In this document: positions 58,648 through 59,811 of the stretch, in pieces
Position numbering within the stretch: the first letter of the stretch is position 1
Layout of the letters: each line of letters opens with the position of its first letter
Origin: a virus
Lineage: Duplodnaviria > Caudoviricetes
DNA length: 64,000 nt
IMG/VR virus record: IMGVR_UViG_3300010429_000387
Coordinates: 1 to 64,000 of that record
Direction: 5' to 3' (one strand)
Notes under the pieces: generated by a model
Seen by the model: the letters and a program-made list of their open reading frames with translations, nothing else
Databases searched by the model: none
Told to the model about the DNA's origin: nothing
Position numbers and translations under genes: made by a program

Positions 58648-59811
58648 ATGGCAGCAACTTCACGAACCAAGGCTTCTTTCGCTGACGTTCCGGACGACTA
58701 TGTCCCTCGGACGAACGACGATCTGTACCGCACCTACGCATCTTTCGTAGCCAGGCTGGTCACACGGTACAACCGGGTGACCTCGAACTACGAGGATTTG
58801 CTCCAGCATGTTTGGTACAAGCTGATCGAAGTTGACGTGATCGGCAAGTACAATGCGTCCGGGGGCTCCCTCCCGAAGAAGCTGACGGCCCTCCAGGCTT
58901 GCTCGCATCTTCAGATCACCTGGATTCAGTTCAAGAAAATCCTGCACCGGCATCGTGTGGGCGACAACCGCCACACTGACCGGGTTCGAGGGGTAGCGGA
59001 CGAACTTCGGGATCGGGTCTTCGAGCGGGACCATGGGGTCTGTGCCTGCTGTGGCAGCAACATGCACGAGTTTCAGGAGAAGATGGAGTTCGGACGCCTG
59101 AACCCTGACCTCCACCACACCAACAAGCACAACGGAAAGCAGTACACCCACGCTGAACTGATCAAGCTGCTGGGGATCTCTCCGAAGCAGAGGATCTTCT
59201 GGTATGCTGAAAAGGTGGGCAAGATCAAGCGTGGTGGGGATCATCTCCCCGCTTACCAGACCATCTGTTTCCGTTGCTGGAACAAGAAGAGCGATGGGGT
59301 CCAGAAGTCCAAGTCCGAGTGGGCACCCGCTCCGATAGAGGGAACCTGGGCTTCCAAGAAGGCCATGTACGCTCGTGAGGACATCGAGCGGCTCAAGATG
59401 ATGCGGGAGGGCCGCAAGGACCGCTGCAAGAAACACGTAGATATCGATCCCCTGGTGTTCCACACCAAGAGCTTCTTCAAGCTGTACCTGGCTCGGTCGG
59501 TCCACAACATCTACGCCAACTGGTGCCGAACAAGAGACCGTCGGTACAAGGAACACTTCCCTGGCATCGACGCTGAGTCGGGCAAGTCCTGGGAGGAGAC
59601 CTTGGAGGACCCGACGGGACCCCGTCAGGAAAACCTTCTGGCGGTCTACGAGGCTGCCAAGGTCATCGCCTACGGTGACCGGGACGGTGGCGGAGAGTCC
59701 AAGGTCCATGAAGAGGTCCTGGCCCTGGCTGCCGAGGGTCATACCCTGGCTGAAATCGTCCAGAAGCTCTCGCTGCCCAAGACGGCTCTCAAAGCCTTGC
59801 AGGGAGGATGA
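58648..59811 (+). CDS. ECF-like sigma factor with HTH and HNH-like insertion in region 2
   Basis: LYRTYASFVARLVTRY...EDLLQHVWYKL (2.1-2.2); FKLYLARSVHNIYANWCR (2.3-2.4); EGHTLAEIVQKL (region 4); insert RDRVFERDHGVCACCG...CFRC. Confidence 0.65.
   Translation: MAATSRTKASFADVPDDYVPRTNDDLYRTYASFVARLVTRYNRVTSNYEDLLQHVWYKLIEVDVIGKYNASGGSLPKKLTALQACSHLQITWIQFKKILHRHRVGDNRHTDRVRGVADELRDRVFERDHGVCACCGSNMHEFQEKMEFGRLNPDLHHTNKHNGKQYTHAELIKLLGISPKQRIFWYAEKVGKIKRGGDHLPAYQTICFRCWNKKSDGVQKSKSEWAPAPIEGTWASKKAMYAREDIERLKMMREGRKDRCKKHVDIDPLVFHTKSFFKLYLARSVHNIYANWCRTRDRRYKEHFPGIDAESGKSWEETLEDPTGPRQENLLAVYEAAKVIAYGDRDGGGESKVHEEVLALAAEGHTLAEIVQKLSLPKTALKALQGG

Follow-up and report, generated by a model that had tools for sequence, protein, structure and literature searches.

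To our knowledge, all structurally studied sigma-70-type factors read the -10 promoter element through sigma domain 2 (sigma2) and a short specificity loop. The present study concerns a gene at positions 58648-59811 of the virus record IMGVR_UViG_3300010429_000387 (Duplodnaviria; Caudoviricetes), whose product, here called P0001, is supported by sequence profiles and a predicted structure as a sigma-70-family, extracytoplasmic function (ECF)-like initiation factor in which sigma2 is split by a winged helix-turn-helix (HTH) domain, itself interrupted by an inactivated HNH module. The stretch analysed, hereafter the window, is the first 64 kb (64,000 nucleotides, nt) of this IMG/VR record, and its source is called a huge phage because the record measures 407,078 bp and is rated complete, with direct terminal repeats.

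A large insertion is known from sigma-70, whose non-conserved region (NCR) lies between regions 1.2 and 2.1, is not DNA-binding and leaves the sigma2 fold intact. The closest described systems are the ECF group 4 sigma factors, such as sigma-H of Mycobacterium tuberculosis, sigma-E of Escherichia coli and AlgU of Pseudomonas aeruginosa, which share with P0001 the same two-domain plan of sigma2, short linker and C-terminal HTH. In M. tuberculosis sigma-H, the specificity loop consists of residues 72-79 and catches the flipped "master" base of the -10 element, which stacks on W81, T-9 being the flipped base in the open complex (PMC6411747). Unlike sigma-H with its loop of 8 residues (72-79; PMC6411747), P0001 carries an insert of ~200 amino acids (aa) made of two nested domains. 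Accessory domains have also been described in sigma-HetZ of Anabaena, where they are located before sigma2, between sigma2 and region 3.2, and after sigma4, and where cryo-electron microscopy (2026) shows that they help to recognise and unwind the -10 element, the specificity loop being unused for its recognition (PMC13342950).

A sigma domain 2 split by a nested insert

The features assigned to the gene, all on the plus strand, are as follows:

58648..59811, +, predicted nested sigma factor coding sequence (P0001); ATG at 58648, stop at 59811, 387 aa, stop included in the coordinates
58699..58863, +, predicted N-terminal part of sigma2, aa ~18-72; helices 2.1, 2.2 and alpha3, Sigma70_r2 positions 1-35, sigma2 matches in VIA
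58864..58983, +, first part of the predicted winged HTH, aa ~73-112; strand, helix and recognition helix (AlphaFold2 strand 78-80, helices 81-88 and 92-103)
58984..59316, +, predicted inactivated HNH (beta-beta-alpha-Me) zinc module, aa ~113-223; CxxC at 132/135 and 207/210
59317..59433, +, second part of the predicted winged HTH, aa ~224-262; P-x-P-x-x-G wing and C-terminal helix MYAREDIERL (AlphaFold2 strand 240-242, helix 243-255)
59461..59559, +, predicted C-terminal part of sigma2, aa ~272-304; region 2.3-2.4 helix (AlphaFold2 helix 277-295)
59560..59619, +, linker, aa ~305-324; conserved G312, W315 and E316, low confidence in the model
59620..59808, +, C-terminal four-helix HTH, aa ~325-387; sigma4/LuxR-like by profile similarity

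The start at ATG 58648 agrees with the starts of the closest homologues in alignment; a longer frame from a TTG at 58561 was rejected since the homologues start at the ATG, and a fusion artefact of the open reading frame (ORF) was ruled out by their colinearity. The AlphaFold2 model of P0001 has a mean predicted local distance difference test (pLDDT) of 85.5 and displays a two-domain layout, with just ~20-30 residues separating sigma2 from the C-terminal domain. Along the chain, sigma2 occupies aa ~18-70 and ~272-304, the winged HTH ~73-112 and ~224-262, and the HNH module ~113-223, followed by the linker and the C-terminal four-helix domain. Neither Sigma70_r1 nor Sigma70_r3 was matched by Pfam in P0001 or its family members.

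Both halves of sigma2 are recognisable. Residues 26-60, corresponding to regions 2.1-2.2, match positions 1-35 of the 71-position Pfam model Sigma70_r2, which is also matched at E<=0.1 by 57 of the 64 family members compared (best E 4.6e-7), and the model places helices at 23-41, 45-61 and 64-70. Across these 64 sequences, the core-binding region 2.2 has invariant D50, L51, H54 and W56, with Q53 kept in at least 90%, while regions 2.3-2.4 form the best-conserved block of the family (F277, Y280, L281, A282, N287, N291, W292, C293, R294, T295 and R298 invariant). The invariant blocks of the family are thus regions 2.2 and 2.3-2.4, a pattern of constraint typical of a working sigma. The best profile-level proof of a split region 2 comes from relatives that carry no HNH module, in which each half by itself exceeds the Pfam cut-off: P0090 (26.7 bits) and P0093 (32.5 bits) match the N-terminal half of Sigma70_r2 (positions 1-37), and P0126 (27.4 bits) matches positions 44-71 of 71.

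Fold comparison agrees with the profiles. When the whole model was searched with Foldseek against the PDB and BFVD, weak HNH matches and non-significant sigma matches were obtained, a failure attributed to the nested layout, which VIA-align resolved: sigma2 structures align with the model range 15..297 over only 74-97 residues. In the predicted structure sigma2 is accordingly whole in three dimensions and interrupted in sequence between alpha3 and the region 2.3 helix. A preliminary description of this gene, made from the sequence alone, had called it an ECF-like sigma factor with an HNH-like module inside an excisionase/MerR-type HTH inside sigma region 2, to be abandoned if no sigma2/sigma4 profile or structural match appeared once the insert was disregarded. 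The insert is bridged in alignment by more than 20 solved sigma2 domains, both the sigma identity and the three-level nesting are borne out by profile searches, the confident predicted structure and fold comparison, and the sequence segments it quoted are all present, each fitting its assigned region.

The position of the insert can be placed with some precision. The family profile aligns with SigB (8x6g_H) up to a conserved K/R-F(Y) that closes alpha3, represented in P0001 by K67-Y68 (both at least 90% conserved), and the chain rejoins sigma2 at F277-x-x-Y280-L281. In the VIA alignment to sigma-H (5zx2_F; model 20..299 against chain 26..100), Y280 lies opposite W81. Because the SigB alignment stops before the loop and the sigma-H alignment pairs Y280 with W81, the ~200-aa insert is placed, on alignment and model, where the -10 specificity loop would be, with the aromatics flanking the pocket retained.

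Composition of the insert

The outer domain of the insert resembles winged HTHs in predicted structure. MerR, CbpM, TipAL, CvkR and an excisionase align in VIA-align with the model range 74..261 over 54-61 residues, and the wing residues P229 and G232 are conserved in the HNH-less relatives too. Pfam profiles are less responsive: MerR_1 recognises 2 of the 64 members (best E 0.008), which does not assign the P0001 family to it, and HTH_17 recognises 3 of 35 isolated inserts (best E 0.014), which likewise falls short of an HTH_17 assignment. A profile built from isolated winged-HTH inserts and compared with the PDB and Pfam gave no MerR/Xis match better than E 0.014, and none in the PDB.

The inner domain is related to HNH nucleases. 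Nine PHROG HNH endonuclease families match P0001 at aa ~105-157, with E 5.6e-6 as the best value at aa 105-141, the family profile matches the HNH domain of ZRANB3 (5mkw; E 5e-7, aa ~115-215) over a range that takes in the long helical stretch separating the two CxxC pairs, and in VIA-align HNH aligns with the model at 114..225 over 94 residues. When columns were taken from the alignment to the 5mkw profile, the D-H histidine of ZRANB3 was found in none of the 64 members, being replaced by K, R, L and other residues; the final histidine is present in one and absent from 63, and the asparagine column is variable. The Cys4 zinc site is kept, with C132, C207 and C210 in 64/64 and C135 in 58/64, as is the R127-D128 motif. 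The loss of the catalytic histidine throughout, while the zinc cysteines persist, is why the HNH is regarded as inactivated; judged from these columns, it is a catalytically dead, exapted zinc module and not a nuclease. No Hint or intein family was matched by Pfam in P0001 or its family members, and the candidates of an intein or an active homing nuclease were dismissed on account of the lost catalytic histidine, the fixation of the module across a whole clade and the absence of a Hint match. Where the preliminary description had suspected a degenerate homing nuclease, the degeneracy is therefore upheld by the catalytic histidine (0/64), and its homing-nuclease origin is not; no intein or Hint feature was found.

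Family distribution and origin of the HNH form

The P0001 family comprises ~70 clusters at 90% identity, nearly all of 350-420 aa and 35-72% identical over their full length; all are metagenomic, and many lie on contigs of 100-570 kb. A profile search of 1.84 billion representatives returned 553 matches at E<=1e-3, 80 of them at E<=1e-30, again all metagenomic. Searching 50,697 phage records by tblastn with P0001 and one HNH-less relative gave no match, and no family member was found in BFVD.

Many proteins of 240-310 aa match the profile in two stretches, skipping positions ~105-208. Alignment indicates that they carry both sigma2 halves and the winged HTH without the HNH module, and that the HNH enters precisely where the recognition helix gives way to the P-x-P-x-x-G wing. 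In a scan of 215 retrieved sequences with sub-profiles, 71 had the full nested layout, more than 100 had the N-terminal sigma2 part and the HTH without HNH, and a few had large unrelated fillings at the HNH point. Two of these fillings were identified: DUF2924/RAMA in P0131 (L015:2989-4797; E 3.6e-34) and DUF4357 in P0170 (L016:5001-6302; E 1.2e-14), each at the same point of the winged HTH as the dead HNH. As for the homologues without insert that the preliminary description had proposed to look for, relatives free of the HNH thus exist in numbers above 100, and a close homologue free of the whole insert was not obtained, the search yielding only a 123-aa fragment that lies on the same contig as a 289-aa piece and is probably part of a split gene.

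A FastTree phylogeny of 174 members, unrooted and computed with the HNH columns excluded, gathers the 74 HNH carriers in one clade (local support 84) with one change of HNH state, by which a single origin of the HNH form is shown for these sequences. That this change was a gain and not a loss is deduced, the tree being unrooted, from the fact that the HNH interrupts an otherwise contiguous domain. On these sequence comparisons, the insert is neither recent nor private to the phage, being fixed throughout a clade that numbers at least 74 sequences, with identities of 35-72%, and the winged HTH alone is older and far more widespread than the HNH form.

Linker and C-terminal domain

The linker could possibly play the part of region 3.2, a role suggested by its position. 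The C-terminal domain was assigned mainly through its profile (A4), which resembles HTHs of the LuxR/GerE type, with RcsB at E 4.9e-4 and DesR at 1.3e-3, and sigma-H (3mzy) at 0.19; in the relative P0126, Sigma70_r4 reaches 24.3 bits, with a cut-off of 24.1. These similarities weakly support an identification as sigma4, which is the weakest part of the sigma assignment.

Candidate promoters

Two candidate promoters precede the gene:

58510..58539, +, distal sigma70-like promoter candidate; TTGACA 58510-58515, 18-nt spacer, TAAACC 58534-58539; ~110-140 nt before the ATG
58599..58627, +, proximal ECF-like promoter candidate of class A; GTTGAA 58599-58604, N16, CGTTGTA 58621-58627; ends 20 nt before the ATG

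The distal element had been overlooked by a simple sigma70 consensus scan because its -10 is without the final T. In the form TTGAC[AG]-N18-TA(A/T)nnn and with fixed geometry, it occurs upstream of the orthologue at 11/11 distinct loci; by background alone, TTGAC[AG] would turn up 0.10 times per 220 nt, that is, per locus. Such conservation suggests early transcription by the primary holoenzyme of the host.

The class A element, separated from the P0001 start codon by a purine-rich leader, belongs to a repeated set: GTTGAAN{16,17}CGTTGTA is found 17 times as an exact copy in the window, between 1595 and 58627, and never in 100 shuffles, so that the class A promoter of the preliminary description proves to be a real repeated element with one copy before P0001. 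The whole genome contains 38 exact copies, nearly all located within 0-76 kb or 282-407 kb, with 77-280 kb almost devoid of them, a clustering suggestive of a temporally defined class of genes. Of these copies, 24 have an ATG exactly 5 nt after the motif, which implies, as far as the sequence goes, leaderless mRNAs for these genes; taking the A of this ATG as +1, CGTT occupies -12..-9, which fits the geometry of ECF promoters with their flipped -9 base and agrees with T-9 of the sigma-H open complex. At the orthologous position, the motif is kept in L002, whose protein is 69% identical, and appears as a variant, GTTGAA-N16-CGTTTAG, in L011 (40% identical). The positive autoregulation proposed earlier is consequently plausible only: the gene has its own class A site, which L002 keeps and L011 has in variant form, and the element conserved at 11/11 loci is the distal TTGACA one.

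Two further regularities were observed among these elements. The class A spacer begins, right after the -35, with the consensus AGAWTCG (e.g. 2859-2887, 3180-3208, 24505-24533 and 27623-27651), which creates a GANTC at fixed position in 12 class A promoters against ~0.05 expected per site; the class A promoter of P0001 has no GANTC site. A second -10-like motif, CGGTGTA, is one base off the class A -10 and apparently lacks the GTTGAA -35; it has 80 copies in the genome, of which 24 have a start codon 9-10 nt downstream.

Gene neighbourhood and other transcription genes

Three neighbouring genes were annotated:

57773..58516, -, divergent conserved gene without family match; ~180-250 aa in relatives, of similar size and orientation at each related locus
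59853..60614, +, insert-free sigma-like paralogue (P0002 family) adjoining P0001; assigned by hhalign and a weak Sigma70_r2 match
60633..62135, +, N6/N4 DNA methyltransferase, beta-class (Pfam N6_N4_Mtase, E 9.9e-28)

The order of divergent gene, nested sigma, insert-free sigma-like paralogue and N6/N4 methyltransferase is kept. Eight related loci, among them HNH-less and RAMA/DUF4357 forms, were compared: the divergent gene lies directly upstream in 8/8, a P0002-sized gene (254-322 aa) directly downstream in 6/8, and the methyltransferase within ~3 kb downstream in 7/8 as well as in the window. The conserved TTGACA overlaps the annotated 5' end of the divergent gene (57773-58516), for which reason the ATG at 58492 is probably where that gene really starts.

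P0002 is probably co-transcribed with P0001. Its family (A5) aligns with the HNH-less sigma family (A6) in hhalign from region 2.3-2.4 to the C-terminal HTH (probability 92.5%, E 4.8e-7), and there is a weak match to regions 2.1-2.2 (Sigma70_r2); a conserved N-terminal extension of ~90 aa is present, and the family is small. P0002 may act as a second sigma, as a co-factor or as a regulator of P0001. Just beyond the methyltransferase, a 159-aa ORF on the minus strand (62047-62526) resembles a small GIY-YIG nuclease, and a Pfam-called GIY-YIG gene is found at the equivalent position of L002, with one also close to the sigma gene of the P0126 locus.

In the 407-kb genome, no canonical RNA polymerase beta/beta' family (RNA_pol_Rpb2_6, Rpb1_2) was matched by Pfam, and since none was detected the core polymerase of the host is the likely partner of P0001. 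Neither the family profile nor Sigma70_r2, searched against the phage genome for paralogues, retrieved any gene other than P0001. Outside the window, a 228-aa ORF (G000:C1:111935-112621; L018:636-1322) carries a pair of HTH stretches of the Sigma70_r4 type (E 1.7e-14) and lacks sigma2; it may represent either a minimal sigma or a transcription factor resembling gp33. The Sigma70_r4_2 match at ~112.1 kb had been considered as a second full sigma and was rejected, as only sigma4-type HTHs are present.

Proposed mechanism and alternative explanations

We consider it rather probable that P0001 is an ECF-like sigma that redirects host core RNA polymerase, with the nested insert as an extra DNA-contacting head and class A promoters as the likeliest target. 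The gene would first be transcribed by the host holoenzyme from the distal TTGACA-type promoter, and its product would attach to the core enzyme of the host by its invariant region 2.2 and its C-terminal HTH. Melting would be handled by the 2.3-2.4 helix with the retained pocket aromatics Y68 and Y280, while the winged HTH and the dead HNH may project from the position of the specificity loop and contact DNA at or just upstream of the -10. A head of this kind might lengthen the recognised promoter sequence or make its recognition sharper, and the unusually long -10 (aaACGTTGTAg) of the GTTGAA-N16/17-CGTTGTA promoters is its likeliest target; the class A copy before the gene itself would then provide positive feedback.

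Several results weigh against this proposal. P0001 scores 17.4 bits (E 0.0039) with Pfam Sigma70_r2 (PF04542), below the cut-off of 24 bits, which we ascribe to the split domain, since it lets only half of the model align. The NCBIfam sigma70-ECF model TIGR02937 gives 21.1 bits (aa 24-75, E 1.9e-4) with a cut-off of 42.9, and phmmer searches of aa 12-76 and aa 262-387 taken singly found no sigma among PDB sequences. The C-terminal domain folded alone (pLDDT 78) had no significant sigma4/LuxR structural match in VIA or Foldseek; the closing region-4 HTH of the preliminary description thus stands as a four-helix HTH, putatively sigma4, with weak sequence-profile similarity. Domain orientation is uncertain in the full model (predicted template modelling score, pTM, 0.56), and the placement of the insert on promoter DNA is therefore hypothetical. 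In most of the more distant relatives the class A motif is absent upstream of the gene, and the neighbouring sigma-like gene (59853-60614) could itself be the class A reader.

This last point leads to an explanation that we hold to be somewhat unlikely, in which P0001 is a true sigma and the reader of class A promoters is either P0002 (59853-60614) or an ECF sigma of the host; the promoters served by P0001 would belong to a different class, CGGTGTA for instance, and the class A element preceding P0001 would reflect cascade control and not autoregulation. Two sigma-like genes do stand in tandem, at least two promoter classes exist (CGGTGTA with its 80 copies, 24 followed by a start codon at a distance of 9-10 nt), among the orthologues only L002 retains the upstream class A site, L011 having a variant, and the universally conserved promoter is the distal TTGACA. 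Against this stand the fact that own-gene promoters are typical of ECF sigmas, the ECF-like character of the class A -10 (CGTT) and -35 geometry, and the invariance of region 2.3-2.4 of P0001 across the family, although the latter does not discriminate between the two sigmas. It is improbable that P0001 has a sigma-like fold and a role outside initiation, acting apart from the polymerase core as a DNA-binding regulator or as a decoy comparable to the sigma-like domain of PhyR. Three putative DNA-binding modules, a sigma4 without structural confirmation and sub-threshold sigma-profile scores would suit such a protein; yet region 2.2 and the 2.3-2.4 helix are the best-conserved parts, which is unexpected for a decoy, the colinear order of sigma2, linker and C-terminal HTH is kept, no receiver or partner domain is present, and a phage without canonical RNA polymerase would need sigma-type factors for its non-host-like promoters.

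Under a further explanation, the HNH segment would not be a functional part of the protein but a selfish element that is active or was so until recently, such as a homing endonuclease, an insertion resembling an intein or a fusion in frame. HNH modules are common in phages as mobile nucleases, PHROG HNH endonuclease families do match, and GIY-YIG genes occur close by (62047-62526, and by Pfam at the equivalent position of L002). The catalytic histidine is nevertheless missing from all 64 members and the last histidine from 63, with the zinc cysteines conserved; the module is fixed, by a single change, in one clade of 74 diverged sequences; it is predicted to fold at high confidence inside its host domain; no Hint or intein match was obtained; and the search among shorter proteins for close relatives free of the HNH gave only the split-gene fragment. 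Taken together, these observations leave the selfish element a very low probability.

The preferred reading, an ECF-like sigma with an extra DNA-contacting head, admits an extension that we regard as speculative and improbable. The specificity loop may act as a plug-in slot, occupied at first by the winged HTH, into one point of which interchangeable DNA-reading modules would then have entered (dead HNH; RAMA/DUF2924 in P0131; DUF4357 in P0170), and the holoenzyme would gain a third head for reading promoters, which may sense promoter methylation, an idea prompted by the link of RAMA- and HNH-type modules to restriction-modification and by the N6/N4 methyltransferase as a conserved neighbour. 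If true, a methylation-reading head would confine middle or late transcription to modified phage DNA.

The wider interest lies in a whole huge-phage sigma family in which a DNA-binding-type domain appears to have grown from the specificity loop, with sub-lineages nesting further modules in it. If the insert contacts promoter DNA, it would represent a new, modular and swappable way to build promoter specificity; it might account for the ability of 400-kb phages to operate promoter classes of their own, mostly leaderless, with the host polymerase, and would be of interest for orthogonal sigma/promoter design. The module itself, on its conserved columns, offers a clean case of a nuclease domain exapted to a structural or DNA-binding zinc module.

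Comparison with known systems

P0001 belongs to a large, previously unstudied sigma family of huge phages; the ECF-like type of sigma is known, and the nested insertion at the specificity loop is unprecedented. In common with ECF sigmas, P0001 has a DLxQ-type region 2.2, an F-x-x-[WY]-L...N...R...R region 2.3-2.4 and candidate promoters of the GTTGAA-N16-CGTT type, one of which precedes its own gene. Unlike them, it has no adjacent recognisable anti-sigma, scores below the Pfam and NCBIfam thresholds and is encoded by a 407-kb phage.

The nested domains also differ from their free counterparts. In comparison with the ZRANB3-type HNH (5mkw) and phage HNH endonucleases, the module of P0001 is without the D-H histidine and the final histidine, and it is nested in another domain, whereas the HNH nucleases of ZRANB3 and of phages are free-standing or terminal. 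Relative to the winged HTHs of MerR and excisionases (Xis/HTH_17), that of P0001 has marginal profile support, is internal to a sigma domain and lacks the dimerisation coiled coil and the effector domain of MerR.

With the NCR of sigma-70, P0001 shares a big lineage-specific insertion in the N-terminal half and a sigma2 fold that is predicted to remain intact, but its insertion lies between alpha3 and region 2.3 and consists of a domain of DNA-binding type. Sigma-HetZ sets a functional precedent for an ECF sigma equipped with accessory domains, and no sequence relationship with P0001 was tested for or seen; in contrast to sigma-HetZ, the addition in P0001 interrupts sigma2 at the specificity loop itself and has a different predicted fold, a winged HTH enclosing a dead HNH.

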